A stretch of 64,000 nucleotides of DNA from Nitrospirota bacterium (GTDB lineage Bacteria; JACPQY01), in contig JACPAV010000014.1 of NCBI GenBank assembly GCA_016180645.1, positions 1 to 64,000 on the forward strand. The letters run 5' to 3'. The position numbers and the translations under genes were made by a program. The notes beneath the pieces are model-generated. The model was not told the origin of the DNA and ran no database searches. It was given only the letters and a program-made list of their open reading frames with translations. Below, piece by piece: positions 1,885 through 46,598 of this stretch (position 1 is the stretch's first letter; each line of letters begins with the position of its first letter).

Positions 1885-3127
1885 CGGCGTCGCCCGAGAT
1901 CCGTTCCCGGTGGTAGTCGATGACTTTGGGGCATTCGGGGTCCGGCTGACGGGCATCACCTGTCGCGAAAGCGGCGACCGCCCGGCATCCGCCCCGGCAA
2001 AGGTGAAGGTACGCGCAGGATTGACATGGTTCAGGCGCATCTTGATTCCAGTTCCTGAACACGGCAAAACGCCCGGGATCTTCCCATGTATTTGGAAGCT
2101 CGGCCAGCGGGGCCTCGGCGCCGGTCCAGAAGCTGCATCCGGAAGCCGAACCATCCGCGTGCACCGCCATGAGGTAGTTCCCCGCGACGCATCCCTGAAC
2201 GGTGAAGTGCTCCAATCGCTCCACGCCGGGGTCATGATAGCAAAGGAATGGCACGAACGAGCAGTCGGATTTCAGCCGGATGCGGTGCCGGCGAGTCCAT
2301 TCAAACAGGAGTGGAAAAAACGATCGGCCCTGGGCTTCCGTGAGGCGCGTGCTTTCGTAACTGGACGCCGCCGCACTCGCCGCGTCATCCGGCCATCCTT
2401 GGCCGGAGCGAGAGGTTGCGAGTGCCGCAGGCTTCCTGCCTGCGGCTCGCCCCGTCGGTTTGTACCGGAGGAATTCGACCTCGTTGAGCTTCAGCGATTT
2501 GGCGTAGCGAACGACCTCTTCGAGCACCTCGAAATTCTTCCGGCTCACCACGCAGTTGATGCCGACGCGTTTGACGCGCCGCCGGAGAAGCCGAAGGGCC
2601 CGATCGGCCGCCTCGAATCCCCGATATCCGCGATGGACCGCATACGCCTCCCCCACGCCGTCGAGACTGACATTGACCTGGCCAAAGATACGGCTTTGGC
2701 GTGCCTGCTCTTCCGTCATGGACCTCCCGCTCGTGGTGACATTGGGGATCATCCCTTTTTCGCGGATGTAAGCGGCGAGATCGAACAGCCCATCGAAGGT
2801 GAACGGTTCCCCGCCGCCGAGAGCCACGTGGAGAGCGCCCAGGCGGTGAAGATCATCCACCCGCTGCTTCAGGACGTCGAGGGGGGGGCGGAAGGACGGC
2901 GCGGGTGTGGAGTTGGAGTAGCAATGACGGCAACCATTGGAACAGAAATCCGTAATCGAGAGATGCACTTCCACGGGCCCCGAGAGGAGCCCCACGGAGG
3001 TCTCGCCCGACCAGCGGGCGCCGCCTTCGTGCCCCATCTTCCGCATGAGGGCGCGGTCGGCCAGCACCAGGAGCGCCGGCTTTTCAAATGCGACGATGCC
3101 GCCGAAGTTCTCGAGGCGGACGCGCAT
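1874..3127 (-). CDS. Radical SAM protein with SPASM domain
   Basis: CSNGCRHC (CxxxCxxC), GGGEP, SPASM cysteines CVAG...GCSF...CQSC...CRGGC...DPEC. Confidence 0.93.
   Translation of the reverse strand: MRVRLENFGGIVAFEKPALLVLADRALMRKMGHEGGARWSGETSVGLLSGPVEVHLSITDFCSNGCRHCYSNSTPAPSFRPPLDVLKQRVDDLHRLGALHVALGGGEPFTFDGLFDLAAYIREKGMIPNVTTSGRSMTEEQARQSRIFGQVNVSLDGVGEAYAVHRGYRGFEAADRALRLLRRRVKRVGINCVVSRKNFEVLEEVVRYAKSLKLNEVEFLRYKPTGRAAGRKPAALATSRSGQGWPDDAASAAASSYESTRLTEAQGRSFFPLLFEWTRRHRIRLKSDCSFVPFLCYHDPGVERLEHFTVQGCVAGNYLMAVHADGSASGCSFWTGAEAPLAELPNTWEDPGRFAVFRNWNQDAPEPCQSCAYLHLCRGGCRAVAAFATGDARQPDPECPKVIDYHRERISGDAVGH
2373..2446 (-). mobile_element. Double-hairpin GGA-loop mini-insert (copy D), in frame inside the radical SAM gene
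   Basis: Minus strand gc-[cgcaggc AGGAA gcctgcg]-gc-[actcgc..tccggcca AGGA tggccgga..gcgagt]-gc; removing 72 bp keeps the frame. Confidence 0.55.
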
Positions 3128-3129
3128 TC

Positions 3130-4176
3130 TCAGGCGTTCGCCCGTACCTCTTTGGCCGCCTTCAGAATGTCATATCCCGTGATCTTCGCGCTGCGCGCGG
3201 CTTTGTCCGCCAGGTACGCGGCTTCCACGAGGCCGGCTTGAACGCCCTTGCTCAGGTCGCCCAGCGCCATCTTGGCCGTGGCCTCATCCACCATCTCGCC
3301 CCGGTGGTGGTCGAACATCGCCCCGCCGCCCTGTTCGTGATAGAGCTCGATGACGCGCTTGGCGTTGTCAATCTCGTCCTTCGACGGCGTGTAGCACTCG
3401 TTGGAAATTGCGGCCTGACTGGGATGGATCACCCACGTGCCGTCCATTCCAAGCGCCGCGGCCCCCATGTTCTTCTCACGAATCCCGCGTTCTATGGCAG
3501 CCACGTCCTCCGGTGATGCACCCTTGCGGGGAAGGCGGAGGAACACATTGTCGATGGCGTGCAGGCCGTGCGCCTTCGCGGCGGCGCACACGCGCTGCTT
3601 TGCATATCCGAAATTGACGTTCTGATCCTCCACGATATTGCGAATCCGCATCCAGGAGGCGTAGTCGGCGATGCCGAAAATGAGCCCCGCCATCCGGGGC
3701 GAGGAGGCGGCGATCTCGTAGGCGTTTTCGAGCGAAACCGGATTCTCGATCAGCGTTTCGATCTGGATCTTGTACGTCCAGCCGGCCTGCTTCTCGCACT
3801 CCGTCAGGAGCTTGTCTACCAGCCGCACATCTTCCGGCCCGAAAATCTTCGGAAGGATGATGCCGTGGAACCGGTTGGGCGCGCCGGTGACCACGGCACG
3901 AACGTCGGCTTCGAAGAACGACGACTTGATGTTGTTGGGCCTGAACGTGACGACCTTCGGCCCGTAGTTGAGCGTGTTGAAGGCCTCCACGATCGTCTTG
4001 CGGCTGACGTCGCCCTTGAACTCGTAGGGGCAGGCGTCCTCGAGGTCCGCCATCACGAGATCGACCGGGGATTTCACCGGGTCTGCCGCGTTGCGGTGGA
4101 ACTTCATGTCGTGACCGGGATACGTGAGCTCCGTCCGCGGGACCACGACTCTTTTTCCGTCATCGAGAACAAACAT
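3130..4176 (-). CDS. CoA-ester lyase, CitE/malyl-CoA lyase (HpcH/HpaI aldolase-citrate lyase) family
   Basis: RTELTYPG, DLEDA, ILPK, LIE, FGIADY, AID, G..G.WVIHPSQ, MVDEAT motifs; GGAGG RBS before ATG 4176. Confidence 0.88.
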   Translation of the reverse strand: MFVLDDGKRVVVPRTELTYPGHDMKFHRNAADPVKSPVDLVMADLEDACPYEFKGDVSRKTIVEAFNTLNYGPKVVTFRPNNIKSSFFEADVRAVVTGAPNRFHGIILPKIFGPEDVRLVDKLLTECEKQAGWTYKIQIETLIENPVSLENAYEIAASSPRMAGLIFGIADYASWMRIRNIVEDQNVNFGYAKQRVCAAAKAHGLHAIDNVFLRLPRKGASPEDVAAIERGIREKNMGAAALGMDGTWVIHPSQAAISNECYTPSKDEIDNAKRVIELYHEQGGGAMFDHHRGEMVDEATAKMALGDLSKGVQAGLVEAAYLADKAARSAKITGYDILKAAKEVRANA

Positions 4177-4189
4177 GGGTTTCCTCCTT

Positions 4190-4600
4190 CTACTTTTTCC
4201 TGGGCGTTTCGCAAAGTTCCAGAAGAACACCGCCCGTTGATTTCGGGTGGATAAACGCAATCTTCTTCCCGTGGGCGCCGACGCGGGGTTTCTCATCGAT
4301 GAGCTGCGCGCCCTTCGCCTTGCAGTCGGCCAGTTTTCCTTCGAGGTTCTCCACGCCGAGCGCCAGGTGGTGGATGCCGGGTCCCCGCTTGTCGATGAAT
4401 TTCGCGATCGGGCTGTCCGGCGAGGTCGGCTCCAGGAGCTCGATGTGGGTCTCGCCCACCGGAATAAAGGCGGTGCGGACTTTCTGTTCTTCCACCTCTT
4501 CGAAATGATCCGGGTGGATGCCGAGGACCTCCTCGTAGAACTTCAGCGCGCCCTCCAGACTCGGGACGGCGATTCCGATGTGGTCCACCTTCTTGAACAT
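4190..4600 (-). CDS. mce: Methylmalonyl-CoA epimerase
   Basis: [49 protein letters not shown]. Confidence 0.95.
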
Positions 4601-4727
4601 GGTTGCCTCCGCAATGGGGATCGAAAGGGAATTTCGAACCGGAGCCGAATTAGCACAGGCGCGAGGGCTTCGTCAATTCGGGGCCGACGGGGAGTGGGAG
4701 ATCCACAATGCCTGGCCTCCCCATCCT

Positions 4728-4850
4728 GGTAGCCGCAGCCCCTTGCCTAGGATGGCATGGGGCCATGATAGGTTGTGGCCCAGGGAATGGGCCACATGGA
4801 ACATGGCCTTCAGGCTGCGCACAAGACGCGGGCTGAAGCCCGCGTCTACC
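4728..4850 (-). repeat. GTAG-type REP doublet interrupted by mini-insert copy A
   Basis: Closely matches the intact copy at 23859..23913 once the insert is removed. Confidence 0.85.
4741..4806 (+). mobile_element. Double-hairpin GGA-loop mini-insert (copy A)
   Basis: cc-[ccttgcc TAGGAT ggcatgg]-gg-[ccatg..gtggccca GGGAA tgggccac..catgg]-cc. Confidence 0.75.
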
Positions 4851-5637
4851 GTCCCTTAAACTCCGGTTCGCGCTTTTGGATGAAGGCGCTCACGCCTTCG
4901 ACCAGATCTTCCGTTTGCGTCACGATCGTCTGGCAGAGCGCCTCGTATTCCAGCGCGGCTCGAAGATCCGTTTCGGCCTGGCGATAGACGGCGCGCTTCA
5001 CCAACTTCATCGGGATCGCCGGCCCCTTCGCCAATTTGCCCACGAACGCTTCCGTCACTTCCCGGAGTTTGTCCGGAGGAGCGATTTTGTTGACGAGCCC
5101 GACCCGATGCGCCTCCTGGGCTTCAATCATCTCGGAGGTCCAGATCAATTCGAGGGCCTTGGAGAGTCCCACCAGCCGCGGCATGAAGTAGGTGCCGCCC
5201 ATGCCGGGACTGAGCCCGATCCGCAGGAACCCGGTGCTGATTTTCGCTTCGGTCGACATGACGCGTAGATCGCACGCGAGGGCGAGCATCATGCCGGCGC
5301 CCACGGCATGGCCGTTGATCATGGCCACCGTCGGGATCTCCAACTGCGTGATGCACAAGAACTTCGGGTAGAACCTGAGGAACCCTTCGCGCCGTTCGGG
5401 TACAGGGGCTTGGAGGTCCATCGAGGTGCTTCGGAGGTCCCCCCCTGAAGAAAACGATTTGCCCGCTCCGGTTACCACCACCACCCGGGCCTCGCGATCG
5501 TCCCGGAGTTCTGCGATGCATCGCGAGAACTCATCCCCCATTTCGGGGCTCATGGCGTTTCGCATGTCCGGCCGGTTCAGCGTGATCCAGACGGCGCCGT
5601 TTTTTCTCTCGACCAGAAATGTAGTGTACTCGGCCAT
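4846..5637 (-). CDS. Enoyl-CoA hydratase/isomerase (crotonase family)
   Basis: ITLNRP..RNA, VTGAGKSFSSGGDL, INGHAVGAG..LALACD, EGVSAF..KREPEFKG. Confidence 0.93.
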   Translation of the reverse strand: MAEYTTFLVERKNGAVWITLNRPDMRNAMSPEMGDEFSRCIAELRDDREARVVVVTGAGKSFSSGGDLRSTSMDLQAPVPERREGFLRFYPKFLCITQLEIPTVAMINGHAVGAGMMLALACDLRVMSTEAKISTGFLRIGLSPGMGGTYFMPRLVGLSKALELIWTSEMIEAQEAHRVGLVNKIAPPDKLREVTEAFVGKLAKGPAIPMKLVKRAVYRQAETDLRAALEYEALCQTIVTQTEDLVEGVSAFIQKREPEFKGR

Positions 5638-5742
5638 GCTGAGGGTCACGTTTACCTCATGGAGGGGCGGGTGCGCAAGCGCGGAAGTGTGACCGCGCCT
5701 ATTGAACAACCGCGGCAATTGGACTAGGTTTCAGAGCGGCGG

Positions 5743-8700
5743 ATGCTGACAAAGAAACGAACCATTCTGCTCGGTACAGGCGCGATCCTGCTCCTGATCG
5801 TCGCTTCGGCGATTAACGGCTACCGGCATACGGTGGATGAAACCGCTGTCGATTTCAACCGATTCCAACTGGCCTTGGTGCGCACGGTGGCCCTGTCCGT
5901 TCATGCGCGTCTTGAAGTCATGGTGTCGGACCTCAAGCAGCTTAACAATCGCCCGCCGATCCAGTACCTCGATCAACCCTTCATGTCGGACAGGCTCCTC
6001 AAGTTTGTGCGTGAATCTCCCCGGAGCTTGGTCAAGGAGGCGTTCCGGGTCGACGCCTCGGGCCGTGAGGTGGCGAAGGTGCGGGGAGACGGCGAGGGAC
6101 CGGCGCATCGCCGCCTCTGGTCCGAAAAGGAGATGTTCGACTGGGCACGCCAACTCTCCCACCGTGGACATGCGCGGTTTGGCGACGTGCGGAGTATTCC
6201 GGGTGGAGGGCAGGAAGTCCTCCTGATCATGCCGACCTACGAGGAAACAACCGGCACCTCCCATCGCAAAGCAACGAACCGGTTTGCGGGAGTGACGGGA
6301 CTGGTCATCGACGTGGACCGAATGCTCCAGCTCTATGTCTCCACAACCGAGAAGGCGGCGCCGGCCAGTTTCATCTGCGTGGTGGACGGCGCTCATCGGT
6401 TCCTCCTGCACACGCGTGTTCCGTCGATGGTGGGGAAGGGGGTTCTTGAGGGGGTCGATCCTGAAAGCCGCGAAGGCCGGTTTCTGACCCGCGCCACGGA
6501 GGAGCCGGAAGGAACGGCCGAGGGATTCTCCCCAGACCGCACGGGACGGGGAAAACCGAGCGAAGAAGTGGTGGCGTGGTCGTCCGCCGAGGTCGAGAAC
6601 CTGAACTGGCGGATCAAGCTTCACACGGCTCACTCCACGGTGGTGGCCAAGGCCCGCCATGCCTTTGCCATGCAGCTCTGGACGGTGGTCTTCCTGATCC
6701 TGACCGTGGGAGGGGGTGCCTGGCTGATGCTCCGGAGCGAACGGCTTGAGATCGCCGCCCGGGATCGCGACCTCGCCCAGCGGCGCGAGTCCGAACTTCG
6801 CTTCCTCGTCGATCGTATCCCGGCCATTCTCTGGTCGGTGGATACCGACCTCAAGATCACTTCCATCCTCGGGGCGGGACTGGCGCCCCTCGGGGTCAAG
6901 CCGAACGAGACGGTGGGGATGAGCCTGTATGACTACATGCAGACGCGCGACCCCGCGAATCCCGCGTTGTCTGCGGCGGCCCGCGCGCTGAAGGGTGAGA
7001 AAGTATCCTACGAAATGGAATGGCAGGGCCATCCCTTCCAATCGTTTGTGGAGCCTCTGCACGATTGGACCGGAAAAATCGTCGGTTGCCTCGGTCTGAG
7101 CCTGGATTTTTCCGAAAGAAAGAAAATCGAGGAGACGCTTCGTCGCAGCGAGGAGCGGTTTCGGATCATCGTGGAGAACGCGCTGGACCCGGTCATGATC
7201 GTGAATCGCGACGGCACCATCCGCTATGCCAGCCGAATGGTGGAAGAGGTTCTCGGCTATTCCCTGGACGAATACCTCGGCCAGTCGGCCTTCGAGTTCA
7301 TGCACCCGGATGACCTCGGCGCCTCGGTCAGTGAGTTCACCCATTCCGTTGAGCATCCCGAAGAGACGAGGCACTTCACCAATCGCATCCGCCGGAAAGA
7401 TGGATCGTGGAGAACGGTGGAGGCCACCGGCAAGAACCTGCTCGGCGACCCGGCCATCGCGGGCATCGTGGTCAATTTCCGGGACGTGACGGATCAACGC
7501 AAGGCCGAAGAGACGGCCCAGGCCGCGCAGAAGCAACTCCTCAGCATCCTGGATACCTTCGACGCGATCATCTGGTCGCAATCGCCATGGGACCGGAAAT
7601 TCTTGTACGTGAGCCCGGCAGCCGAGCGGATTCTCGGGCACCCCATCGCACCCATCCTCGAGAACACCCGGTCCTATTTAGACGTGGTCCTTCCGGAAGA
7701 CCGGGATCGCGTGGATTTCGGAACGGAGATCATGGAGAAGGGCAAGTCCGACACGGAGTACCGGATCCGGAGGCCGGACGGTGAAATCCGCTGGCTTCGG
7801 TCCCGGGGTTGGGTGGTCAAGGACGAGAAGGGGTCCGTGGTGCGTCTGGACGGCATCACCTCGGACATCACTCAGCGGAAGCGGGCGGAGGAAGCCCTCC
7901 AGCGGGAAAAGACCTACTTGCAGGGAATACTGGACAACTCGATGGACCTGATCTTCACCGTGAGGCGAGACGGGACCTTTGGCTACTTCAACCCCCGGCT
8001 CGAAGATGTGACAGGGTATCGGCAGCAAGACCTCACAGGCCGATCGTTCATGGAGTTCATACCGGAGCATCGCAAGGCCTTCATGCTTGAGCGGTGGGAG
8101 GAGATCAATCGCGGCATTTCCGGCCGGTACGAGACGGAGATCATTAGGGCAGACCGAACGCTGATGCAGTGCAGGATTTCTCACTCGGTCTTGCCCGGCT
8201 TCGACGAGTTTCTCGTTGCGTTGCAGGACGTCACGGAGCAGAAAATGGCTGTCGAAGCCCGGAAGGAAAGCGTGGCGTTGTTCGGATCGCTGGTCGAAAA
8301 CATGCAGGCGGGGGTGCTCGTGGAATCCGAACAACGAAAAATCTTCGTGGTGAACCAGGCTTTCTGCAACATGTTCTCGGTTCCCGTTTCGCCCGACCGA
8401 CTGATCGGTGCGGATTGTAAGGAGGCGGCGGTGCGCGACAAGGATCAGTTCGCGGAGGGCGAGACGCTTGTGCAGCGGATCGACGAGATCGTGGAGCGGC
8501 GGGAGGGAGTCATCGGCGAGGAAGTGCGCATGGCGGATGGACGCGTCTTCGAGCGCGACTACATTCCGATCGTCACCGATCATCAAAAGTTCATCGCTCA
8601 TCTGTGGCAGTACCGGGATGTCACCGAACGGAAGCGCGCCGAGGCGGAGCGCATCCGGGTGAGCAAGATGGAATCGATCGGGCTCCTGTCCGGCGGGATC

Positions 8701-9789: not shown

Positions 9790-9820
9790 TCCGACGTCTC
9801 CGGTCCTGTAGCATCCGCCG

Positions 9821-10144
9821 ATGCTTCCCCTTGGCTCGCTGAAAGATCAAGTCGCCGTCATCACCGGCGGCGGCACCGGTCTCGGGAAGGCCATGGCCGA
9901 TGAATTCGGGCGGCTGGGAGCCAGGCTGGTTCTCGCGAGTCGAAAAAAAGAGAACCTCGATTCCGCTGCGGAGGATCTTCGCAAGAGGAAGATCGAGGTG
10001 CTGACCGTTCAAATGGACGTGCGGAAGCCGGAGGACTTCGTCAACGGCGACGTGTTCACGATGGACGGGGGGGAGTGGCTCAACCGGGGAATCTTCCGCG
10101 CTCTGGATCGCCAGGAAGCTCCCTCGATTCCTCCAAGGAAATAG
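9821..10144 (+). pseudogene. SDR (2,4-dienoyl-CoA reductase-like) with a large in-frame internal deletion
   Basis: ITGGGTGLG...MDVRKPE is joined directly to the C-terminal FVNG..TMDGG.WL; no NNAG or YxxxK region; only 107 aa. Confidence 0.75.
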
Positions 10145-10208
10145 AGGCCCGCACGCCCCTCACGGGGCGGGAGGATCTCCGGCTTTTTCTCTGAACCCGG
10201 CGGGTGCC

Positions 10209-10445
10209 CTATCGGGCCGGCGGCTTGAAAAGGTCGGAAGGGGAGACACGAAGGACCTGGCCCAGCGTGAAAATCGTGTCGAAGGACGGCATCCGCTGTC
10301 CCCTTTCGAGCAGTCCCAGGTAATTGGCGGAAAGCTTGAGCGCCTTCGCCAATTGCTCCTGCGTCATCCCCACCTTTGCACGGAATCGGCGCGTGTTGGC
10401 GCCCACCCATGTCGCGAGTTCCTGAGTATCTTTTGCCTGTCTCAT
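10209..10445 (-). CDS. XRE/Cro-family HTH transcriptional regulator
   Basis: GMTQEQLA...SANYLGLLERGQRMPS; GGAG RBS upstream of ATG 10445. Confidence 0.9.
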   Translation of the reverse strand: MRQAKDTQELATWVGANTRRFRAKVGMTQEQLAKALKLSANYLGLLERGQRMPSFDTIFTLGQVLRVSPSDLFKPPAR

Positions 10446-10574
10446 GATCGCTTTGCTCCCTCCTCGGCAACGATCCGGCCTTTCGGCCGGTCGTGATACC
10501 GGCCGACCTCTGAACTTCTTCGGCGGACCCAACGCCCGCAATTCAGGCCAGAGAGCGGCCGGGAACGAATGCCC

Positions 10575-10760
10575 CTACAGGTCGCTCGGTTTCAGCGTCT
10601 TGCGACCGTTCGCTTTGCAGCGCGAGATCGCCTGACCGATCAGGTCGCGGACGACCTTGTCCAACGCGCCGTAGAATTCCGACGAAACGTTGTGACCCTT
10701 GGCGGCGCCCTTCGTTCGGCTCTTCGAGATGATCAGTTCTTTTGATTTTCCTTTTGCCAT
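10575..10760 (-). CDS. Prokaryotic histone-fold protein (61 aa)
   Basis: LII.S+.K...NVSSEFYGALDKVVRDLIGQAISRCKANGRKTLKPSDL with the RKTxxxxD signature; basic; AAGGAG RBS. Confidence 0.85.
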   Translation of the reverse strand: MAKGKSKELIISKSRTKGAAKGHNVSSEFYGALDKVVRDLIGQAISRCKANGRKTLKPSDL

Positions 10761-10871
10761 GTCGAATCTCCTTTCGGTTTCAATTTCAATTTGTGAGCGT
10801 AAAGCCATGTATCACAGGCATGAGGCCCATTGCAAGTCATTAATCACCGGGGTGACAAGCTGAAAGGGCCG

Positions 10872-23858: not shown

Positions 23859-23913
23859 GGTAGCCGCGGGCTTTAGCCCGCGTCTAGTACGCAGCCTGAA
23901 GGCTGCGGCTACC
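23859..23913 (+). repeat. Intact GTAG-type REP doublet
   Basis: ggtagccgcgggctttagcccgcg-tctagta-cgcagcctgaaggctgcggctacc: two hairpins with inverted GTAG ends. Confidence 0.88.
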
Positions 23914-37732: not shown

Positions 37733-37974
37733 TCTCGGGCCGACCACGGGCCACTGACCACAAATAACGATCCTGGGTACTCCTGTCCCCATCGCATAGA
37801 AAAAAAGTCAGGAAAAATCGACGCAGAGAGTCCAAGAGAGCTTGAATTTGAAGTTGGCACGCCGTTGCTGTAAGACGGTGCCCCATGAGCCATAGGGAAC
37901 ACTTCACAAATCGAGCCAGAGCAAGTCTCCAGGCCATTGAAATCGACTCAAACATCAGCCCCAATGTTTTCTCT

Positions 37975-37998
37975 GTAGCCGCGGGCTTCAGCCTGCGT
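37975..37998 (+). repeat. Single GTAG-type REP
   Basis: gtagccgcgggcttcagcctgcgt. Confidence 0.75.
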
Positions 37999-38022
37999 CC
38001 GAGAGTAATAGAAGGAGGTCAC

Positions 38023-40875
38023 ATGAAATCCAGGTTTCTGACATTGATCGGCGCCGGTCTGGCCATTGCATTGGCTGGATGTAGCGCCGAAGAACTGGCC
38101 GCGCTCAATGCGCAAATGCAGGCCGCCGGAGTCCAAGGCGCGCAGACGGGCACCGCCGTCACAGCCGTCGGCTCAACGACGACCACGATCAACAGCACCG
38201 TGCAGACCATTCAAACGGTGACCGACATGGCTTCAAGCGTGTCGGACATGAGCAGCTCGAGCGAGAGCCTGTCGGACAGCTCGTCCACCGCCTCCTCAGG
38301 CAGCGCCACCAACAGCTCGTCGCTCATGGGCGGCCTCCGCGGCGCGCCGATGAGACAGACGACCTCCACCACCACCGCCTGCGATCCAGCGAAAATGCTG
38401 TGCCCCCCACCCCCCTGTGATCCGGCCAAGATGCTGTGCCCTCCCCCCCCAACGGGAACGACAACGACCACTCAGCCCGTCCAGCCTCCGCCGCCCCCGA
38501 AGCCGCCGGATCCGGAAACCGTCTGCACCACAACACCCCCCGCAGGCTCTTACATTCCCTGCTTCTGCGTGTTCCACAAGCCGGCTCTGTTCGCCGACCA
38601 AGGCGCTGTAACCTGCGAAGAGCAGCGTCCACCCGCGCCCGGCGAAGGAAGCAACTTCCAGAAAATGACAGGCACGATTACCGTGGTTACTCAGGAGGAC
38701 GGCTGTCTCAACGCCTCCTTTGCGATCGCCGGCATGCCGAGCGACGCCCAGGTGGGCGATGATATGAAAAAGAACTGCACGGCCTCCGGGAGCACCATGA
38801 GCTGCAAGCTGGGCATGCTCGTCTGCCCGGTCACCGCCAAATGCCAGGACGGGAGCGTGAAGACCTTCTATAACCCGGCTCAGCAGCAGCAGGGTGGCCC
38901 TCCAACCCTTCGAGGCCGGTTCCAATTTCCTCCGGGGCTGGAACCCCCCAAGGAGTTCACGAAGGACAACAAGGAAGACACGAAGGCGTGGCTCCGAAAG
39001 CTCGTGGACACCATCGAGGCGGCGAAAGACGAGAGCAACCTCCGCGCGCTGCTCAAAACGTTCGTCACCTCCGAATCCGGCTGGGTGACGATGGTCAATG
39101 TCGAGCGGTGCAACAACAACGGTGGAAAGCCTTGCCCTCCGGATCCGGATCCCAACGGACCGAAGGAGGTCAAAGCGACCATGATCCAGTTCGGCACGCA
39201 GCAGCTGCCTCCGGCCGTCTGCCCCGGTGAACAAGGACCCACCGCGCCCCCGTTGATGGTGAACTACCAAACGGGTTTCGCCGCGATCACGGTGGATGGG
39301 AAAGTGCCGGGCATCGGACAGATCAGCATGGACGTGTTCCACGCTGAGTTCGAGAGACCCTCCGACGAAGCGTGCACGCCAAACAAACTGGATGGCACAC
39401 CGCTATCGGACAGTGTGAAGGGCAAGGGACGTCTGATCAACGGCCGTCGAGCCGAAATCGGCAGCCAGGGCGACTACTTCGCCGCGGGCAAGACCACCCG
39501 CTGCCAGGCCCTCGAGGCCGTGGCCGCCGCGAGCACCGCAGGCGCACAGTTCACCCCGCCGATCACCTACGTGGACGAGCTGCGGAACGACGTTCGCCAA
39601 CTTCCTAAACCGCAAGCGAACAAGGACGGCAAATTGCCGTTCCGCTATCCGGTGTTGATGAATGAAGAAACACGCATGTCCATGGTGGTGAAACCGCAGG
39701 GCTTGCGCAGCGAAGCAGGCAAGTATGGCGGTGATCTCCCCCCCGTGCCGCAGGCGAGACCCGGTCAACCCGGTCCCGGTCAGCCCGGCCCCGGACCCAT
39801 TGTCGGCCCGCCGCCGGCACCGGTTGGCCTTCCGGGTCCCGGAACCCCGCCTCCTCCGGCCATAGCCGTGAGCGAACTCAGATTGCAGGTTCAACGGCCC
39901 GGCGGTGATCAAACCAAGCCCGGCACCGGAGTCCAGGGCGGCCAACCCGGCCAAGGCCCCGGTGGCCCCGGCCAGATGATGGGCGGATGCCCCGGCGAAG
40001 GCGCGGGCCAACGCACGGAGGTCATCACGTTCTCCGACGACAAAACCGAAACCCGTGTCCAGTCTTTCATCAAGAAGGAAGGCCAGTGCCGTCCGACCCC
40101 GATCGGAAAAGACGGCAAGCCCCTCGAGATCACGGAGGACGACAAGGGCAACCTGAAAACGAAGCTGAAGGATGAAGCGACCGGCGAGGAGATCGAGGCG
40201 ACCGTGGAGAACCCCGACTCTGAGAACAAGGTCGTGAAGATCAGCGCGGGCTTTGTGACGGGATCGATCTCGTATCACGCGGCCGACGAAAACGGCATCA
40301 TCGCCGAGGGCGAGCTCAAGGTGAAAGTGCTGAAGACCGAGGTCGAAGTGACGATCCTCTTGAGCGAAGCCGGCTGGCAGCACGTGCGCGGCAAGGTTGG
40401 AACGTCGGATAGCAAGACGGTCACCTTCTGGCAAAACCGCACGACCTTCAAGGATGAAGCGACCGGCACCGACCGTGATGGCGCGGAGATCGTGTTCGCG
40501 CTCGGCAGCCAACCCCCGGCGAAGCTGACCGAAACGCCCGACACCACGGGCGCCGAAGCCACGGGATCGATCAACATGTTCGTCCCCGGCACCCCGGACA
40601 AGAAGGACTGCGAGAACACCGGCAATGGTGTGATGAAGCTCGTCACCGGAGGGGATTCGGGCCAGGAACTCACGCTCGCGCTCTTCGAGGATGAAACGTC
40701 CATCGTGAAAACGAAGGACGGCACGGTAGCTAACGAGCCGCTCGAAGGCTGTGCGCTCGCGAAAGGCGGAACGGGCAAAGCCACGTCCGCTTCCACCACG
40801 GGTCAGACCGCATCCAGCGGTCAGGCGACCACGACGGGCGGAACCACCGCGACAGCGACGGCCTACCGCTTCTAG
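38023..40875 (+). CDS. Large Cys/Pro/Thr-rich orphan lipoprotein (950 aa)
   Basis: AAGGAGG RBS; MKSRFLTLIGAGLAIALAGC lipobox; low-complexity linkers; followed by a terminator. Confidence 0.85.
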   Translation: MKSRFLTLIGAGLAIALAGCSAEELAALNAQMQAAGVQGAQTGTAVTAVGSTTTTINSTVQTIQTVTDMASSVSDMSSSSESLSDSSSTASSGSATNSSSLMGGLRGAPMRQTTSTTTACDPAKMLCPPPPCDPAKMLCPPPPTGTTTTTQPVQPPPPPKPPDPETVCTTTPPAGSYIPCFCVFHKPALFADQGAVTCEEQRPPAPGEGSNFQKMTGTITVVTQEDGCLNASFAIAGMPSDAQVGDDMKKNCTASGSTMSCKLGMLVCPVTAKCQDGSVKTFYNPAQQQQGGPPTLRGRFQFPPGLEPPKEFTKDNKEDTKAWLRKLVDTIEAAKDESNLRALLKTFVTSESGWVTMVNVERCNNNGGKPCPPDPDPNGPKEVKATMIQFGTQQLPPAVCPGEQGPTAPPLMVNYQTGFAAITVDGKVPGIGQISMDVFHAEFERPSDEACTPNKLDGTPLSDSVKGKGRLINGRRAEIGSQGDYFAAGKTTRCQALEAVAAASTAGAQFTPPITYVDELRNDVRQLPKPQANKDGKLPFRYPVLMNEETRMSMVVKPQGLRSEAGKYGGDLPPVPQARPGQPGPGQPGPGPIVGPPPAPVGLPGPGTPPPPAIAVSELRLQVQRPGGDQTKPGTGVQGGQPGQGPGGPGQMMGGCPGEGAGQRTEVITFSDDKTETRVQSFIKKEGQCRPTPIGKDGKPLEITEDDKGNLKTKLKDEATGEEIEATVENPDSENKVVKISAGFVTGSISYHAADENGIIAEGELKVKVLKTEVEVTILLSEAGWQHVRGKVGTSDSKTVTFWQNRTTFKDEATGTDRDGAEIVFALGSQPPAKLTETPDTTGAEATGSINMFVPGTPDKKDCENTGNGVMKLVTGGDSGQELTLALFEDETSIVKTKDGTVANEPLEGCALAKGGTGKATSASTTGQTASSGQATTTGGTTATATAYRF

Positions 40876-40899
40876 ACCGTCTAACTCAAGCCAACAACG

Positions 40900-40934
40900 C
40901 CCCCCATCACGAAAGTGATGGGGGGTTCTTTTTT
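40900..40934 (+). terminator. Rho-independent terminator
   Basis: ccccccatcac-gaaa-gtgatgggggg then ttctttttt. Confidence 0.88.
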
Positions 40935-41236
40935 CCGGCCAGAATCAGCCACGCTCAGGGTGGTTTTGGCGAAATCCGGCAATATCTCAAAATTGCACTG
41001 TGGCGCGCTCCATCTCCAATTCAGCCCCGAAGACCTCCGAATCTGGGCTGTAGCAAAATACTTGTAATTATATTGACTTATGAGAACGCTCCTTGGGTTT
41101 CCTATTCGAGCACTTTCAGAGCATTTGGATGGAGTGGAACCATTGTTGCACTTGAAAGACTGTGACGGGCACGGCCACGAGAAAACGCTTGACACGAAAA
41201 ACTTGTGGTGCTTTAGTACGCGCGTTGGAGGTGCAC

Positions 41237-42799
41237 ATGCGACACCAAGTTGTGAGAACTAAGTTTCTAGCTGTCTTCATGGTTTCGCTCTCGGCCCTGA
41301 TCGTGGGCTGCGCGAAAGGGGGGCCCGATCCGGAGCGAACTCTGAATCTCCGCATGTATGACGCGCAAGTCCCAAAGGCCCTCGCCAAACTCCAACTGCG
41401 CGCCGTCACCTTCGGCGGGTTCCAGGATTTCAACACCGATGGCGAAGCGAAAATCAATCTCCCGGAAGGGCGTACGCAAGTCGGTGTCGTCGTCGAGCGG
41501 AAGACCGATCGTATGGTGCTCCTCTCCTACAGCTTCCCCGAATGGATCGAACGCGATGCCCTCCGTCCCTTCACCAGCCGGAACGACAAAGTCAAAGTCA
41601 ACGCCGAAAGCACCGCCCTCGCGCTCACCATGATCAACCCCCTGTTCTTCGGGACGACGATCGAGCAGAAGGCCGACATCGCGGAAAAAGCCGTGATCCT
41701 GCCCGAATTCAATGAACTTACCAGGCAAATCCGGAAGGCGTGGGATGACGATCCGACGAACGCCCTCGACTACAACCGCAATCCGCATCTTTTCTATCTG
41801 GCCCATGATGTGTCCGTCAGCGCCGCGAAGATGCTCGTCGATGAGCGCGTGCCTCAGAACGCCCCCCGCCGAGCCGCCTCCATCGACAAAGATGCCGCGT
41901 GGATCGAGCAAATCTCCGGCCTGAACGCCGTTTTCAAGAATCCGAAAATGATCTACTACGGCGCGGGCGTGTACACCCAGTCGGCCAGCGACAAGAATCC
42001 GACGGCCACCGTATTGGTGAACGACAAGGAGAAAGTCATCGATTTCAGCATCTGGCCCCCGAAGGTGGAAATCGCGGCGCCTCGCGAAACCCCCTACACG
42101 CTGCCGGGCCCCGGACTCTGGCGCGTGGGCATCTTCAAAGGCATGGACATCAACATGCCGCTCGAGGAGATGTGGGCCACTCCGCCCGCGCAGCTCGCCT
42201 TTATCGGCAACACCTGGCAGACAGTCATCATGATCATCAGCCTTGCGGGCGACACGGGCCTCGTGCCGGGCGCCGGCCAGGTCGGTTCCTTCATGCGAAG
42301 CATGATGGACTTTGACGACATCTACCCGATCTACCAGGCCATCCAGACGGGGGACCAAATGACGATCATCAACGCCTTCGTGAAGTTTTTCCAAGACCAC
42401 TGGACGGACATCGCCGGCTTCATCTTCAACTCCGTGAAGTCCAACGGCGGCGACACCCAGGCCGCGTCCAGCCTCCTGGGCAAAGTCGGCGAACTCGCCG
42501 GCATTGCCACAAGCCTGTTCAACGTGGTGAATGTCGAGGTCCCGTTCTTCTATGATCTGATCACGGCCCATCCGAAAGCCGTCTACCTCATGCAGGACGG
42601 CGTCGTCTCCAGCAGCCAGGTTCAGACCAGCTCCTGCGCGCAGGTGTACTACGGCGCCGTTCCAGTGGGCGGACTCAAAGACGCTGCCGTGTCCGTGGTG
42701 TTGCTCATCGCACCCCTCCTCATTGTCATCTATATCCGTCGGCAAGAACGAAAGGTGCGCCCCCGGCGCCCCGTATCCATTAGCCTCGACAGAGGCTAG
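41237..42799 (+). CDS. Hypothetical lipoprotein with an additional C-terminal TM/basic tail
   Basis: GGAGG RBS; lipobox LIVGC; C-terminal SSC...AVSVVLLIAPLLIVIYIRR. Confidence 0.8.
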   Translation: MRHQVVRTKFLAVFMVSLSALIVGCAKGGPDPERTLNLRMYDAQVPKALAKLQLRAVTFGGFQDFNTDGEAKINLPEGRTQVGVVVERKTDRMVLLSYSFPEWIERDALRPFTSRNDKVKVNAESTALALTMINPLFFGTTIEQKADIAEKAVILPEFNELTRQIRKAWDDDPTNALDYNRNPHLFYLAHDVSVSAAKMLVDERVPQNAPRRAASIDKDAAWIEQISGLNAVFKNPKMIYYGAGVYTQSASDKNPTATVLVNDKEKVIDFSIWPPKVEIAAPRETPYTLPGPGLWRVGIFKGMDINMPLEEMWATPPAQLAFIGNTWQTVIMIISLAGDTGLVPGAGQVGSFMRSMMDFDDIYPIYQAIQTGDQMTIINAFVKFFQDHWTDIAGFIFNSVKSNGGDTQAASSLLGKVGELAGIATSLFNVVNVEVPFFYDLITAHPKAVYLMQDGVVSSSQVQTSSCAQVYYGAVPVGGLKDAAVSVVLLIAPLLIVIYIRRQERKVRPRRPVSISLDRG

Positions 42800-42821
42800 C
42801 TCCCCAGTACTCGCAGGGAGA

Positions 42822-42849
42822 GGCCCCGCTTCCGGGGCCCTCTTTTTTT
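42822..42849 (+). terminator. Rho-independent terminator
   Basis: ggccccg-cttc-cggggcc then ctcttttttt. Confidence 0.8.
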
Positions 42850-42864
42850 GTGTAGCATAGCCGG

Positions 42865-43254
42865 GTGAATCCTCTTCCCCGCTCCGCACTGCTGTTCACT
42901 GTTCACTGTTTACTGTTCACTGCTTCGTGCGGCAGCGACAACCCCTGCGAGGGCAAGGCCGGCGGCCTTCCCGCCTTGAAGGTCATCAATCCGACGGATT
43001 GCGACTTGAACGTAACGGTAGAGCAGGGCCGGCTACTCTATGTTCCGGCGAAGGGCATCGGCTGCCAGGCGGATTTGGGATCTACTCCCCTGACAGGCGA
43101 TCACACCGTCCAGGCAACGAAGAACAAGACCGGCGAAGTGTGCGAGACCCAAAGTGTGGATTTCGGTTCGGCCCCCTCCGATCCGGCGGCCCAAGGCCGC
43201 GTCGTGACCTACCAGCCCTCGCTGGCAAGCTGTATTTGCGAAGTCCCGAAGTAG
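42865..43254 (+). CDS. Small Cys-rich lipoprotein
   Basis: Lipobox-like FTASC; six further Cys; signal peptide encoded partly by heptamer repeats. Confidence 0.65.
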   Translation: MNPLPRSALLFTVHCLLFTASCGSDNPCEGKAGGLPALKVINPTDCDLNVTVEQGRLLYVPAKGIGCQADLGSTPLTGDHTVQATKNKTGEVCETQSVDFGSAPSDPAAQGRVVTYQPSLASCICEVPK

Positions 43255-43289
43255 CGGCGACTAGGCTCTGTTTGAAAACGCGATGGACC

Positions 43290-43413
43290 GGTAGCCGCAG
43301 GCTTCAGCCTGCGTCCGAAGACGCACCCTAAAGGCCATGTGACATGCCGTGCCATCCGTGGCACGGCGACATCTCATGGCCCCATACCGTCCTCGGCATG
43401 GGGGTGCGACTAC
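43290..43413 (+). repeat. GTAG-type REP doublet interrupted by mini-insert copy B
   Basis: ggtagccgcaggcttcagcctgcg...cgcaccctaaagg[insert]ggtgcgactacc. Confidence 0.85.
43335..43401 (-). mobile_element. Double-hairpin GGA-loop mini-insert (copy B)
   Basis: Minus strand cc-[ccatgcc GAGGAC ggtatgg]-gg-[ccatg..gccgtgcca CGGA tggcacggc..catgg]-cc. Confidence 0.75.
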
Positions 43414-43455
43414 CCAGAGATGCGCCTTGGCAATGATGGGTTTTTCAAGCAGCGC

Positions 43456-44229
43456 CTACGCGCCGAGGGCCTGCTTGATGCGCGAGAGGGATTCCGGAAT
43501 GGCGTCCCGCTCCACGAGCTCCAGAGTGAGCAAGGGACGGCCCACCAGAGGCAAGTCTTCCTTCAAGATTTTTTCAAAGTCGATCTTCCCCCGGCCGAGC
43601 GGAAGGTGCTGGTCCTCGGTCCCGTCATTGTCGTGCAGGTGAAGCTCGATGATGTGGTCCTTCAGCGCGTCGAACCAATTCCGAACGGAAACCTTGGAAT
43701 AGAGGTTGGCATGCCCCACGTCGATGCAGATCCCCATGCTGTCGTCCTTCAGGAGTTCGAGCAATTTCTGGTGCAGCACGGGGGAGTCTTCGTAGACATT
43801 CTCCAGCGCAATCCGAATTCCGGCATTCTGCGCCGTTTCCGCCAGATGGGACCAGGTTTCGACGCTGTTTTGAAGCCACTCATCGGTGTGCCGGTGGTGT
43901 TGCTTCGGCTCGTAGCCCAGATGGCACACAACCGATCGAGCGCGTAACACCTCGGCCACCTCCAGCAGTTCTTCCAGCCGCTCCCGGGTCGCCGTCCGCA
44001 CCCGGCGGTCGAACGCGCCGGGGCTCAAGTCGCGGTAAGGAGCGTGAACGGTGACGTGAAGGGACTGGGGCAACTCGCGCGCGAGCTTTTCCACGTCCTT
44101 CATCTTCAGGGAATCGAGATCCTCCGCGTTGAGGCGAACTTCGGGTTGCACCGCGTGCGGAGTGAGGAATTCGAGATCCTGCCTCAGACGGCTGAAAGGT
44201 ATGTATGCGTGATACGAGTAGGGTTCCAT
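43456..44229 (-). CDS. Sugar phosphate isomerase/epimerase (xylose isomerase-like TIM barrel)
   Basis: HAPY, IALENV, CIDVGH, LHLHDN..DQH..LG.G.IDF, TLE. Confidence 0.88.
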   Translation of the reverse strand: MEPYSYHAYIPFSRLRQDLEFLTPHAVQPEVRLNAEDLDSLKMKDVEKLARELPQSLHVTVHAPYRDLSPGAFDRRVRTATRERLEELLEVAEVLRARSVVCHLGYEPKQHHRHTDEWLQNSVETWSHLAETAQNAGIRIALENVYEDSPVLHQKLLELLKDDSMGICIDVGHANLYSKVSVRNWFDALKDHIIELHLHDNDGTEDQHLPLGRGKIDFEKILKEDLPLVGRPLLTLELVERDAIPESLSRIKQALGA

Positions 44230-44343
44230 AGTGCGCGGGATATTACAGTGTTTATTTTCCCCCGTCCATGGGTTGACTCACTTTTCTGTTCGCCGTCAGT
44301 GCTTGGGAGTGGGTTTTCGGTCTGGGGTCGCGGCGCAGGGGGC

Positions 44344-45435
44344 CTATGACCCTTCCGATCGCCGTCCCCCCGCGTTCCGCGGAGGGGCTGAGGCGTTTTT
44401 CCTGAAGGCGCGCTTCTGTACGATCGTCTGCGCAGCGTGACTGACCGCGCCGGACACTTCCCTGCTCTTGGCCAACCGCTCGAGTTCGAGCAGGCTGCCG
44501 ATCCCTTCGAGAAACCGGAGGACCAGAAAATGCGGTGTCTTGGGATTCTTGACGAGGAGATTCCGCACACGCGCATCCTTGGACCAATCGGTATGCGTTC
44601 CGATTCGGCGCAGGATGTCCTGCGACACGTTTCGGAGCTGGCAGAACTGGACGACCTCATCCACCGTCAGCGCCGGATTGGACAACACGCCCATCGCAAC
44701 GTCCAGGAAACCATCCTGCACCAGGATGTATCGGACGAAACGATTCGCGATCGGCGCAAGGAGCACTCGCCGAGGTCCCTCCATGTCCTTGAGCAGAGAC
44801 CGGATGGCCGGGAGTTGGTCCTCCGGCGTGCCGGCGTCGATCAGTGCGCTTGGGAAGAAGGATGCGTCCGGTGCGCCCTCGGAAGGGAGCCGCGCGGGTG
44901 CGGTCGCCTCGGGGGCGGCCGGTTCGGGCAGGGGAGGCGCCGTCGGTGCGACGAGGCCGGGAATGTCTCCCTCAAGCTGGAGGAGAAGCCACTGGGGGGT
45001 CAGGGGATTCTTGCGAAGGGAATGAAAGATTTTCGGAGCGGCGCGGATGCGGTCGTGGCGCTCGGCGATGATGCGGAGGATGAGCGGATCTTCGCAGTAT
45101 TCTGAGAGGAAGCAGAGGGTGTCTTCCGGCATGGCCGGAAGAGCAACGAGTTTTCCGATGACGGCGCTTTCCTGCCGGTACTTCTGCGCCAGAAATCCGA
45201 TCAGCCCGGGATCGTCCACGTGTTCGCACGCCGCCACCACGAGATTCTTCGGGAAGGATTCCAAGGTCTCGAGGGCCGTCTCGCGCACGGCGTCCTCATC
45301 CGCCTGGGTCAGAACGTGGAGAACATACAGTTGTTCCGGCGGCGAGAGCGGGAGCAGGCGGCGCGCGGCCAGCATGCGCGTCGCGGTCGGGCTGTCGGCC
45401 GCAATCGCCTTGCGGGCGGCTTCGGAGAGAATCAC
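44344..45435 (-). CDS. Conserved hypothetical alpha-helical repeat protein
   Basis: VLSNP.LT..EV...R.V..D.LR.I...W...VR..LVKNPKTP pattern recalled from deltaproteobacterial hypotheticals. Confidence 0.7.
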   Translation of the reverse strand: MILSEAARKAIAADSPTATRMLAARRLLPLSPPEQLYVLHVLTQADEDAVRETALETLESFPKNLVVAACEHVDDPGLIGFLAQKYRQESAVIGKLVALPAMPEDTLCFLSEYCEDPLILRIIAERHDRIRAAPKIFHSLRKNPLTPQWLLLQLEGDIPGLVAPTAPPLPEPAAPEATAPARLPSEGAPDASFFPSALIDAGTPEDQLPAIRSLLKDMEGPRRVLLAPIANRFVRYILVQDGFLDVAMGVLSNPALTVDEVVQFCQLRNVSQDILRRIGTHTDWSKDARVRNLLVKNPKTPHFLVLRFLEGIGSLLELERLAKSREVSGAVSHAAQTIVQKRAFRKNASAPPRNAGGRRSEGS

Positions 45436-45453
45436 AAGAGGAAAGTGGACCGG

Positions 45454-46410
45454 CTACTCTTCGAGAATCTTGGGCTCGTACCCTTTCTCCTTGAGCTTGC
45501 CGACGAGTCTTTGTGCCTGTGGCCGCGTAAGATGATCCACCCGCACGACGCGAACCTGCTTGGCCCCTTCCTCCTTGCGAATGTTGCTGGGCAGGCCCAG
45601 CGAGCGCACTTTCTTGACGCGGCGGTCCAACAGGCCCTGATCGCTGACGGCCTCAAACGTGATGAGATAAAGGATGCTTTCATCCTTCCTGCGGAACGTT
45701 CGGAGGGACATCTCGGTGGGCTTGAATCCGTGCTCCGGAAGATTCCGGAACACCAGCTCGGCGTCCTCGCGCTCCGGGAACGGACCGATCCTCAATTCAT
45801 ACGAGGTCCCTCCGGAATTCTTCCGGGTGACCAACGGCTCGTACCCGATCCGCCGAATTTCCCGGAGGGCGCGCTGGTAGTACGTTTGGCTCGCATAGCT
45901 GCCGATCTGAACGCTGAGGTCGCCTGCAGGCATTCGGACCGGCTTGGGCGCGCTCGGCCCCAAGCCACCACGAGATTCGGAGCGCGTCCGCGCTGTGCCC
46001 TCACCCGGCCTCCGGCCACCCTCTCCCGCTTGCGGGATAGGGATGGGGTGAGGGGTATCGGGGCGGTTTTCATATGCGCTCTCGATGTTGTCTTCACTGG
46101 AGGGCAGCAGAAGGTCTGAGGGGCCCGGTGTTTGGTTGGGGGGAGGGGCCACCGCCACCTCCCCGGGAAGTTCGGGGCGTTCCAGAAAGGAGGCCACGTT
46201 CCGGTACACGAAGAAAGCACCGAGCGCGATTCCCCCGAGGAGAACCATCAGAATAGGGAGGGGCGTGATGCGGACCACGCGTTCGCGAGGCGGCGAGAAA
46301 TCCCGGCGCGCGGGCGCGGGAGAGCCGATGGCATCGGAAACGAGGTCTTCGAGGAGTTTGTCTTCGTCGCCTTCCGGATCGTCCGGCATCTTTCCTTGAT
46401 AGTACGGCAA
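45454..46410 (-). CDS. SPOR domain-containing membrane protein
   Basis: Single TM, Pro-rich linker, VQIGSY, YELRIGPF..REDA, second SPOR-like repeat; start uncertain. Confidence 0.75.
   Translation of the reverse strand: MPYYQGKMPDDPEGDEDKLLEDLVSDAIGSPAPARRDFSPPRERVVRITPLPILMVLLGGIALGAFFVYRNVASFLERPELPGEVAVAPPPNQTPGPSDLLLPSSEDNIESAYENRPDTPHPIPIPQAGEGGRRPGEGTARTRSESRGGLGPSAPKPVRMPAGDLSVQIGSYASQTYYQRALREIRRIGYEPLVTRKNSGGTSYELRIGPFPEREDAELVFRNLPEHGFKPTEMSLRTFRRKDESILYLITFEAVSDQGLLDRRVKKVRSLGLPSNIRKEEGAKQVRVVRVDHLTRPQAQRLVGKLKEKGYEPKILEE
45998..46055. repeat. CCCTCACCC/CCCTCTCCC-type palindromic element in frame inside the SPOR gene
   Basis: ccctcacccggcctccggccaccctctcccgcttgcgggatagggatggggtgagggg encodes PHPIPIPQAGEGGRRPGEG. 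Confidence 0.7.
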
Positions 46411-46502
46411 CTCCGAAATTGCAATCGAGGTCCAACACCTGGTTCCGCTTCTCCGGTAGCCGAACCCTTTACGGGTGCGTCTTTCCGCGCCCGCGTGTTT
46501 CC

Positions 46503-46598
46503 GTCATTCCCGCGAAAGCGGGAATCCCGTGCCCAGGAAGGTACGGGACCATGCAATGTCGCCGCGCCAGGGATGGCGCGGCATGGGCCATGGTCCAG
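46503..46598 (+). repeat. GTCATTCCCGCGAAAGCGGGAATCCAG palindromic element interrupted by mini-insert copy C
   Basis: Removing 46527..46595 restores gtcattcccgcgaaagcgggaatccag. Confidence 0.8.
46527..46593 (+). mobile_element. Double-hairpin GGA-loop mini-insert (copy C)
   Basis: tc-[ccgtgcc CAGGAA ggtacgg]-ga-[ccatg..gccgcgcca GGGA tggcgcggc..catgg]-tc. Confidence 0.75.

Follow-up and report, generated by a model that had tools for sequence, protein, structure and literature searches.

The question raised by this stretch of DNA from a Nitrospirota bacterium (64,000 nucleotides of contig C8, hereafter the window) is whether the short pairs of adjacent hairpins found in it form a mobile family, and whether such units choose their insertion sites by base pairing. 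An earlier note on the window had described four inserts, A to D, sharing one architecture, in which a two-nucleotide linker between two hairpins is the reverse complement of the dinucleotide found on both sides of the insert. We name this unit the double-hairpin (DH) element, and report that it forms a family in this genome (G000; a 4.72-Mb assembly in 65 contigs, 60.8% G+C) and in a second genome of the same taxonomic family and phylum (G001), that its copies interrupt repeats which also exist empty, and that linker and flank covary. The features of the window that bear on these points are given below; scores are those of a covariance model (R1) built from 43 non-redundant DH copies, and coordinates of DH copies include the flank dinucleotides, which the earlier note had left out for the same copies A to C. 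Hosts are described as repetitive extragenic palindromes (REPs) where they are of that type.

2373..2446, no strand assigned: copy D of the earlier note, a unique hairpin pair outside the DH family.
4739..4808, plus strand: DH copy A (79.8 bits; class CC-GG-CC), with flank CC at 4739-4740, hairpin 1 at 4741-4760, linker GG at 4761-4762, hairpin 2 at 4763-4806 and flank CC at 4807-4808; the host is a GTAG REP, entered at its stem-loop junction, with GGTAGCCGCAG at 4728-4738 and TTCAGGCTGCG at 4809-4819.
23890..23913, minus strand: empty paralogue of the host REP of copy A, GGTAGCCGCAGCCTTCAGGCTGCG.
43333..43403, minus strand: DH copy B (92 bits; class CC-GG-CC), with its linker at 43380-43381; the host is a GTAG REP, entered at its stem-loop junction, GGTAGTCGCAC..TTTAGGGTGCG on the minus strand at 43404-43414 and 43322-43332.
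46525..46595, plus strand: DH copy C (89.4 bits; class TC-GA-TC), with flank TC at 46525-46526, linker GA at 46547-46548 and flank TC at 46594-46595; the host repeat is GTCATTCCCGCGAAAGCGGGAA, TC, CAG, with host sequence at 46503-46524 and 46596-46598.

The DH element is 67-69 nt long and carries no gene. Read on its top strand, a flank dinucleotide (N1N2) is followed by hairpin 1 (CC-hairpin 1-GG, 20 nt, with GGA in the loop), the linker (l1l2), hairpin 2 (CCATG-hairpin 2-CATGG, with an inner stem and GGA in the loop) and the flank dinucleotide once more, and the consensus with flanks reads, part by part, CC; CCnTGCC-nnGGAn-GGyAnGG; G[G/A]; CCATG..ATGTCGCCGyGCC-nGGA-nGGCrCGGCATG..CATGG; CC. 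The GGA is nearly invariant in the loops of both hairpins, and the stem base CCATG/CATGG is common to the two. Copies A, B (read on the minus strand) and C align base for base on this architecture, and each folds as single-stranded DNA (ssDNA) into two adjacent hairpins, with z-scores of -2.8 to -5.4 relative to shuffled sequences. After these three copies, the next-best match to the covariance model in the window scores 21.1 bits. Copy D was rejected as a member, as it gave no nhmmer match at E ≤ 10 and scored 18.9 bits with the covariance model (E 0.1, on the minus strand); its relatives in the genome, found by blastn-short, are all partial (16-41 nt), none being full-length. One hairpin of D has an AAGGAT loop, like that of DH hairpin 1; the other is similar to a GTAG-REP stem, as is the right arm of D. 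The common architecture claimed for four copies thus holds for A, B and C only, and with D invalid, the proposed linker rule effectively had a single covarying example in the window, namely copy C.

We then turned to the two genomes, which are the sole members of the phylum in the genome set searched. The covariance model matched 81 DH copies in G000 and 69 in G001, and with about 150 matches the pattern is not a chance one; in G000, 73 full-length copies were also found with an nhmmer profile, and 21 with a strict regular expression. The covariance model had no match in a further 59 genomes. When 185,579 species genomes were scanned with a pattern, 50 stretches emerged, comprising nine in one metagenome-assembled genome labelled Nitrospirae bacterium (JACPQY01) and 41 single matches. 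Moreover, metagenome contigs gave five hits, none of them better than E 0.03 against the covariance model, viral contigs gave seven, none matching the model, and a blastn search of a plasmid collection gave no DH match. No described family that matches the element was found in a comparison covering Rfam and full-text literature searches (ISfinder and Dfam lay outside it); the earlier note had likewise not recognised it as a described one. Rfam gave no match in the window at the gathering threshold, and a search with six representative copies at E ≤ 1 returned two weak matches, far below the gathering scores, the better being PrrB/RsmZ at E 0.18 on the wrong strand. In addition, one 68-nt copy is identical in G000 (C18:31786-31853) and in G001 (locus L162), in surroundings that are non-orthologous and align over only about 124 nt (89.5% identity). 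Against an identity of about 71% in coding DNA between the two genomes (measured on 24 aligned segments, each 300 nt or longer), such sharing of identical copies suggests either recent exchange or strong constraint.

Evidence that DH inserts into pre-existing sequence comes from host repeats that occur both with and without it. In REP-a (..GCrGGCTGAAG-CC-yGCGGCTACC), a single CC is present in 102 of 104 uninterrupted copies; the same is true of all 73 uninterrupted copies of REP-b (GGTAGnCGCAC-CC-TTTAGGGTGCG, the host type of copy B) and of 28 of the 30 uninterrupted copies of the repeat GGAGGA-CC-TGAAGGTCCTCC. Filled sites carry the flank dinucleotide twice, and uninterrupted repeats carry it once. 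When copy A is excised in silico, GGTAGCCGCAGCCTTCAGGCTGCG is restored, a string that occurs five times in the genome, the minus-strand occurrence in the window included, while excision of copy C yields ...GCGGGAATCCAG, which occurs eight times (the 24-mer quoted in the earlier note occurs twice); both restorations claimed there are therefore borne out. Uninterrupted host strings were also found for TC, TA and TG/CA sites, and some of the hosts are themselves DH copies. In nested insertions of the TA class, the site is the TA of CCATGA-TA-TGTCGCC, with 27 uninterrupted and two filled strings; nesting at the TG of CCATGCGA-TG-TCGCC is represented by four uninterrupted strings and one filled string, and nested copies of the CC class lie in the sequence complementary to the GGA loop in further DH copies (..TCC^T..). 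At least 28 different host contexts were counted in G000, and the target duplication is 2 nt in every class. By sequence alone, two descriptions are equal, as the unit may be regarded as a 67-nt element with a 2-nt duplication or as a 69-nt element that ends in N1N2 and is inserted 3' of N1N2. The reconstructed hosts are mostly palindromes with the site in or beside the loop, and their predicted folding energy is -10.0 kcal/mol, compared with -5.9 kcal/mol for random CC sites in DNA free of open reading frames (ORFs). Sites enclosed by at least four pairs did not discriminate between hosts (18/28) and controls (206/400), ORF-free DNA itself being rich in palindromes. Altogether, the empty hosts with one dinucleotide and the nested copies support the view of DH as a tiny non-autonomous insert that enters different palindromic hosts.

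To what extent does the linker follow the flank? The rule was read on 145 complete copies (83 from G000 and 62 from G001), five truncated or interrupted G001 copies being excluded; where mutation had altered the anchor motif, the parse was adjusted by eye. The two flanks are identical in 135 of them, while the other ten differ, mostly by one transition. The identical-flank classes, written as flank-linker-flank, were distributed as follows:

CC-GG-CC: 44 copies in G000, 38 in G001
TC-GA-TC: 3 in G000, 9 in G001
CA-TG-CA: 0 in G000, 4 in G001
TA-TA-TA: 4 in G000, 4 in G001
CC-GA-CC: 24 in G000, 2 in G001
CA-TA-CA: 2 in G000, 0 in G001
TC-GG-TC: 1 in G000, 0 in G001

The first linker base, l1, is complementary to N2 in all 135 copies, and in 106 of them (CC/GG 82, TC/GA 12, CA/TG 4 and TA/TA 8) the full two-base linker exactly reverse-complements the flanks, the remaining 29 having a mismatch at one position. 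As the copies are not independent of one another, host families were also counted by hand: targets with N2=A received T-linker elements in 6/6 families and those with N2=C received G-linker elements in 30/30 (Fisher p 5e-7), and the association between l2 and N1 likewise holds by host family (8/1 vs 4/27, Fisher p 5e-5). Three copies on contig C21, found later, fit the l1/N2 rule, one of them adding a further A·C case. The G001 copies, together with divergent copies of G000, add three classes, namely TC/GA in new hosts, CA/TG and TA/TA. The rule therefore extends well beyond the three valid examples on which it had been proposed, yet it is not absolute, and what the earlier note presented as a rule is better described as a strong tendency. 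These counts suggest that DH picks its insertion sites by base pairing of the linker with the flank dinucleotide, in line with the proposal that target choice or junction formation involves pairing; that the pairing takes place during transposition is something we infer from the statistics.

The CC-GA-CC copies deserve separate consideration, as they are a young subfamily that resides almost only in REP-a. Their mean pairwise difference is 0.07 in the insert and 0.27 and 0.09 in the two arms of the host REP, and arms that are more diverse than the insert fit repeated insertion into older REPs rather than to the spread of one composite. Within REP-a, elements with a GA linker lie at CC^C in 16/18 cases and those with a GG linker at CC^T in 6/6 (p 2e-4); each of the two variants is also common as an empty site (40 and 61). 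Such a split by linker indicates that recognition may reach the base after the site; target reading may thus include that base, and G22 of the element could pair with the C found there. Hosts of the CC/GG class have a T directly following the point of insertion (CC^T) in 27/31 contexts.

Regarding the structure, the stems had been said to co-vary between copies, and the 43-sequence alignment agrees with this: 93.7% of cells are paired, compared with 25-48% when the partner is slid by one to three columns, changes occur on both sides in 11 of the 23 stem pairs, and the observed covariation score was reached by none of 500 shuffles. The commonest pair at columns 7-18 is G·T (23/43), and G·T pairs exceed A·C pairs overall (33 vs 14). 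In addition, folding predictions assign the higher stability to the top strand, rather than the bottom one, for 86 of the 122 distinct copies (Wilcoxon p 7.5e-8, a value overstated by the relatedness of the copies). We take the excess of G·T and the stability of the top strand as signs that one strand of DH folds on its own and that the element acts as a single strand, with the top strand favoured. Both ends have a subterminal hairpin on that one strand. The four bases 5' of hairpin 2 are GGGG, GGGA, GGTG or GGTA, and hairpin 1 is preceded by the flank.

Based on these results, we propose that DH is a single-strand element akin to REPs or to IS200/IS605, that a Y1 (HUH) enzyme moves it in trans and that the linker serves as guide, and we put the probability of this reading at about 0.5. 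We infer the single-strand route, the class of enzyme and the role of the guide from the features described above. A Y1 enzyme of the RAYT, TIRYT or IS200 kind, acting on ssDNA and encoded elsewhere in the genome, would bind the hairpins on the top strand, and the tetranucleotide GG+l1l2, 5' of the foot of hairpin 2, would serve as a DNA guide. This guide would pair with the N1N2 directly 3' of hairpin 2, which would be the right cleavage site, and also with the N1N2 5' of hairpin 1, the left cleavage site, with hairpin 1 acting as a 20-nt spacer that folds the site back onto the guide. The left-end spacing of IS608 is 19 nt, and the 20 nt of DH come close to it. The guide would pair with the same dinucleotide in a single-stranded target as well, usually in the loop or at the top of the stem of another palindrome, and the element, cut out or copied as ssDNA, would be joined 3' of the target N1N2, which would leave N1N2 on both sides.

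A further proposal, which we hold only tentatively and at somewhat less than even odds, is that DH would be the smallest guide-directed transposon so far, a 67-69-nt ssDNA element with a central 2-3-nt guide that reads both its own ends and the target, moved in trans by domesticated Y1 enzymes, and with natural guide variants (GG, GA, TG and TA) each retargeted to the matching dinucleotide. What would be new is that the guide logic known from Y1 elements is pared down to a single short guide lying between the two hairpins, accompanied by natural retargeting variants; if the guide reading is true, a length of 67-69 nt would approach the minimal design of a single-strand insertion element with a programmable site. 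Moreover, the spread of REP-type repeats was called "poorly understood" in 2021, in a passage of PMC8266576, and DH would, if the proposal holds, provide direct natural evidence on how such sequences spread. It makes that spread testable, through its matched empty sites, its nested insertions and four natural guide variants with shifted landing sites.

Several observations weigh against the proposed Y1-driven, guide-directed movement. Strict complementarity is broken in 29/135 copies, all at l2/N1 (28 A·C and 1 G·T), and 26 of these 29 are CC-GA-CC copies, almost all in one REP type. The family is known from only two metagenome-assembled genomes, both from uncultured groundwater bacteria. Comparison of G000 with G001 gave no orthologous empty site, intergenic DNA being too diverged to align, and none of the joints examined skipped one DH element, among 15 of 83 joints listed (metagenome contigs ending at copies). 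The orientation of copies relative to the sign of GC skew is not significant over the 65 contigs (odds ratio 1.8-2.5, p 0.06-0.25). As to the enzyme, the seven Y1_Tnp genes of G000 have no DH copy within 700 nt, and each of them already has a cognate repeat of its own (REPs for two RAYT genes, terminal inverted repeats for the five longer ones); no Y1 protein of G000 reaches the cut-off of the IS200-type TnpA model (NF033573), and a search for TnpB did not find it.

The candidate enzymes themselves are nevertheless worth describing. G001 has eight Y1 matches, and among the seven of G000 two proteins of 156-157 aa pass the NCBIfam RAYT cut-off, with 100.5 and 88 bits. Their genes form two classical REPtrons, at the following positions:

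G000 C25:105731-106204: RAYT gene encoding 157 aa
G000 C25:35020-35490: RAYT gene encoding 156 aa

Each of these genes is surrounded by its own GTAG-type REPs, of the form GGTAGCCGCAGGC..GCCTGC for one and GGGAGGGTC-TTTA-GACCCTCCC for the other, and these REPs are the commonest hosts of DH. The five longer Y1 proteins (C46, C48a, C48b, C52 and C36) resemble RAYTs without reaching the cut-off; a weak DnaA-C-like tail is present in four (C46, C48a, C48b and C52), and the tailed proteins match subclass 2.1, or TIRYT, as described in passages of PMC6006769 and PMC3733652. All five long genes have their own inverted repeats at the gene borders, with GGGGTCAAG... around C46, C48a and C48b, and the G001 counterparts of the C46 and C48b proteins are 89.7% and 87.1% identical. 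The DH copies nearest to a Y1 gene lie 0.7 and 1.1 kb downstream of C48b. Since no copy adjoins a Y1 gene, no enzyme can be assigned to DH; nor did the nhmmer partial matches include a left-end and right-end pair around a gene, as an autonomous partner would show. The earlier statement that the window encodes no mobilising enzyme is correct, and none adjoins any copy elsewhere either; of the gene types proposed there as possible partners, Y1 and IS110 genes (the latter with three matches) do co-occur with DH in the genome, but none adjoins it.

The repeats at the borders of the long Y1 genes also occur by themselves. The GGGGTCAAG... repeat forms many short inverted pairs, one of them in the window. 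[quoted passage not shown]

Among known systems, a REPIN pairs one REP with an inverted copy of itself, the two folding into a single long hairpin. Like DH, a REPIN is a small doublet that is not autonomous, and a single-copy RAYT is believed to move REPINs in trans according to passages of PMC3116915 and bioRxiv 10.1101/2021.07.10.451892, whereas DH consists of two unlike hairpins in tandem with a covarying linker. REPs and their RAYTs provide another parallel: both DH and REPs are high-copy intergenic hairpins, single-strand action being known for REPs, and in both a short guide (putative in DH) lies directly 5' of a hairpin foot, with a dinucleotide cleavage site on either side (proposed in DH; in REPs CT, or CA for one enzyme; passages of PMC3333891 and PMC8266576). 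TnpAREP of E. coli is described as cleaving ssDNA at C^T, 5' or 3' of the REP (in part of PMC3333891), which the main DH class recalls by landing mostly at CC^T. The CT and CA sites were proposed to be set by the last guide positions in the GTAG 5' of the hairpin foot, and were shifted by GTAG mutation for one enzyme (in part of PMC8266576). However, a REP needs GTAG (GT[AG]G) at its 5' foot where DH has GG+l1l2, the DH unit has two different hairpins side by side, and REPs flank their cognate RAYT whereas DH copies flank no Y1 gene; in DH, moreover, insertions with empty counterparts are visible and the guide varies naturally along with the site.

IS200/IS605 elements such as IS608 and ISDra2 share with DH the subterminal hairpins and a short sequence complementary to the flank, the linker in DH and the guide, relative to its site, in those elements; insertion also occurs 3' of the target there, so that the target and the element's own end resemble a duplication. 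In that group, a guide 5' of each hairpin foot reads the cleavage sites and the target, and retargeting by guide change is established, as reported in passages of PMC8266576 and PMC6006769. Unlike DH, which is geneless, they carry tnpA and two 4-nt guides, one per end; in DH, both ends would rely on a single guide of 2 nt, perhaps 3 nt, located between the hairpins, leaving the left end without its own guide. TIRYTs (TIRtrons; Y1 proteins with a DnaA-C-like helix-turn-helix, subclass 2.1) resemble DH in having a GGGG run before a hairpin, as at DH hairpin 2 (passages of PMC3733652 and PMC6006769). In that system, however, the terminal inverted repeat (TIR) motif GGGGWSAS is matched at 6/8 positions by GGGGCCAT and the TIRs form MITE-like pairs of their own. 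The earlier note had loosely likened the inserts to IS200/IS605 guide pairing or to the 2-nt core of IS110 elements; we favour a guide-type reading, and keep the IS110-type core only as a rival.

This rival survives best among the alternatives, even if we consider it unlikely. It takes the palindrome CATGG-NN-CCATG to be the core on which a recombinase works, the crossover spanning 2 nt, by the logic of serine recombinases or of IS110/IS1111, and the flank dinucleotide to be the crossover core common to donor and target. The joined DH ends would form one such site, and the boundary of hairpin 1, linker and hairpin 2 a second, inverted copy; in fact, the internal CATGG-l1l2-CCATG, read on the opposite strand, equals the end-to-end junction CATGG-N1N2-CC(A)TG, and a common core would be expected to leave an identical dinucleotide at both junctions. 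IS110/IS1111 elements have such a 2-nt core, identical at both junctions, and are 1-2 kb long, with a DEDD recombinase and a structured guide RNA (bridge or seek RNA). They resemble DH, too, in their frequent insertion into REPs (ISPpu9, an IS110 element, targets REPs according to part of PMC12288879), and the three IS110-type matches of this genome lie on contigs C10, C62 and C41. However, DH encodes nothing, and nhmmer detected no similarity to it on these three contigs. Moreover, its targets share only N1N2 with it and not the CATGG/CCATG half-sites, the two sites, 10-35 bp apart, are probably too close for duplex synapsis, and both the G·T wobbles and the bias in stability towards the top strand suggest single strands.

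A very unlikely explanation, in our view, is that of an ordinary MITE, moved by a DDE transposase with a 2-bp target duplication, in which the complementarity of linker and flank would be a by-product, either because flanks that extend a hairpin are better tolerated or because mismatches in an extruded cruciform are corrected after insertion. DH does have a target duplication of fixed length, as classical MITEs do, together with the short terminal inverted repeat CCATG...CATGG, and the one-sided flank differences in 10/145 copies show flanks that decay like ordinary sequence. Nevertheless, that inverted repeat is only 5 bp long, those of classical MITEs being about 15-30 bp (part of PMC3733652), and no partner insertion sequence with DH ends was found. 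In addition, the duplicated dinucleotide follows the element's own linker in four classes and many unrelated hosts, which a protein-determined target would not predict.

The least probable account, a non-mobile functional motif (a CsrA-binding pair of GGA-loop hairpins, a terminator or structural DNA) spread by REP hitch-hiking or gene conversion, could call upon the nearly invariant GGA in both loops, the csrA gene of the genome, the 24 CC-GA-CC copies in one REP type and the copies identical between two genera, but against it stand at least 28 host contexts in G000 alone, REP arms (0.27 and 0.09) that are more diverse than the CC-GA-CC insert (0.07), the lack of a significant Rfam match and the lack of a preferred direction with respect to transcription (of the copies lying between co-oriented genes, 14 are sense and 20 antisense), on which last ground a CsrA or RNA function was rejected.

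The copies also have a practical consequence. The region is present in four groundwater metagenome runs of one study, three of which may be where this DNA came from. When assembled contigs of these runs are compared with a 20-kb stretch that contains five copies, they stop at the copies; DH interrupts REPs and other palindromes, and short-read contigs break there, which is relevant to repeat annotation and to assembly.

Finally, two kinds of variant unit were observed. Five G001 loci (L147, L153, L154, L155 and L160) hold 80-nt variants, in which the loop of hairpin 2 contains an extra small palindrome (..TCCGCCGCGGCGGAGAT..). Hairpin 1 also occurs alone, as a 24-nt unit (CC-CCATGCC..GGTATGG-GG), at C46:16990-17013, C23:9939-9962 and C18:158099-158123 of G000, in two of these three cases at the centre of a host palindrome; such solo copies could be products of partial excision or a separate mini-unit.

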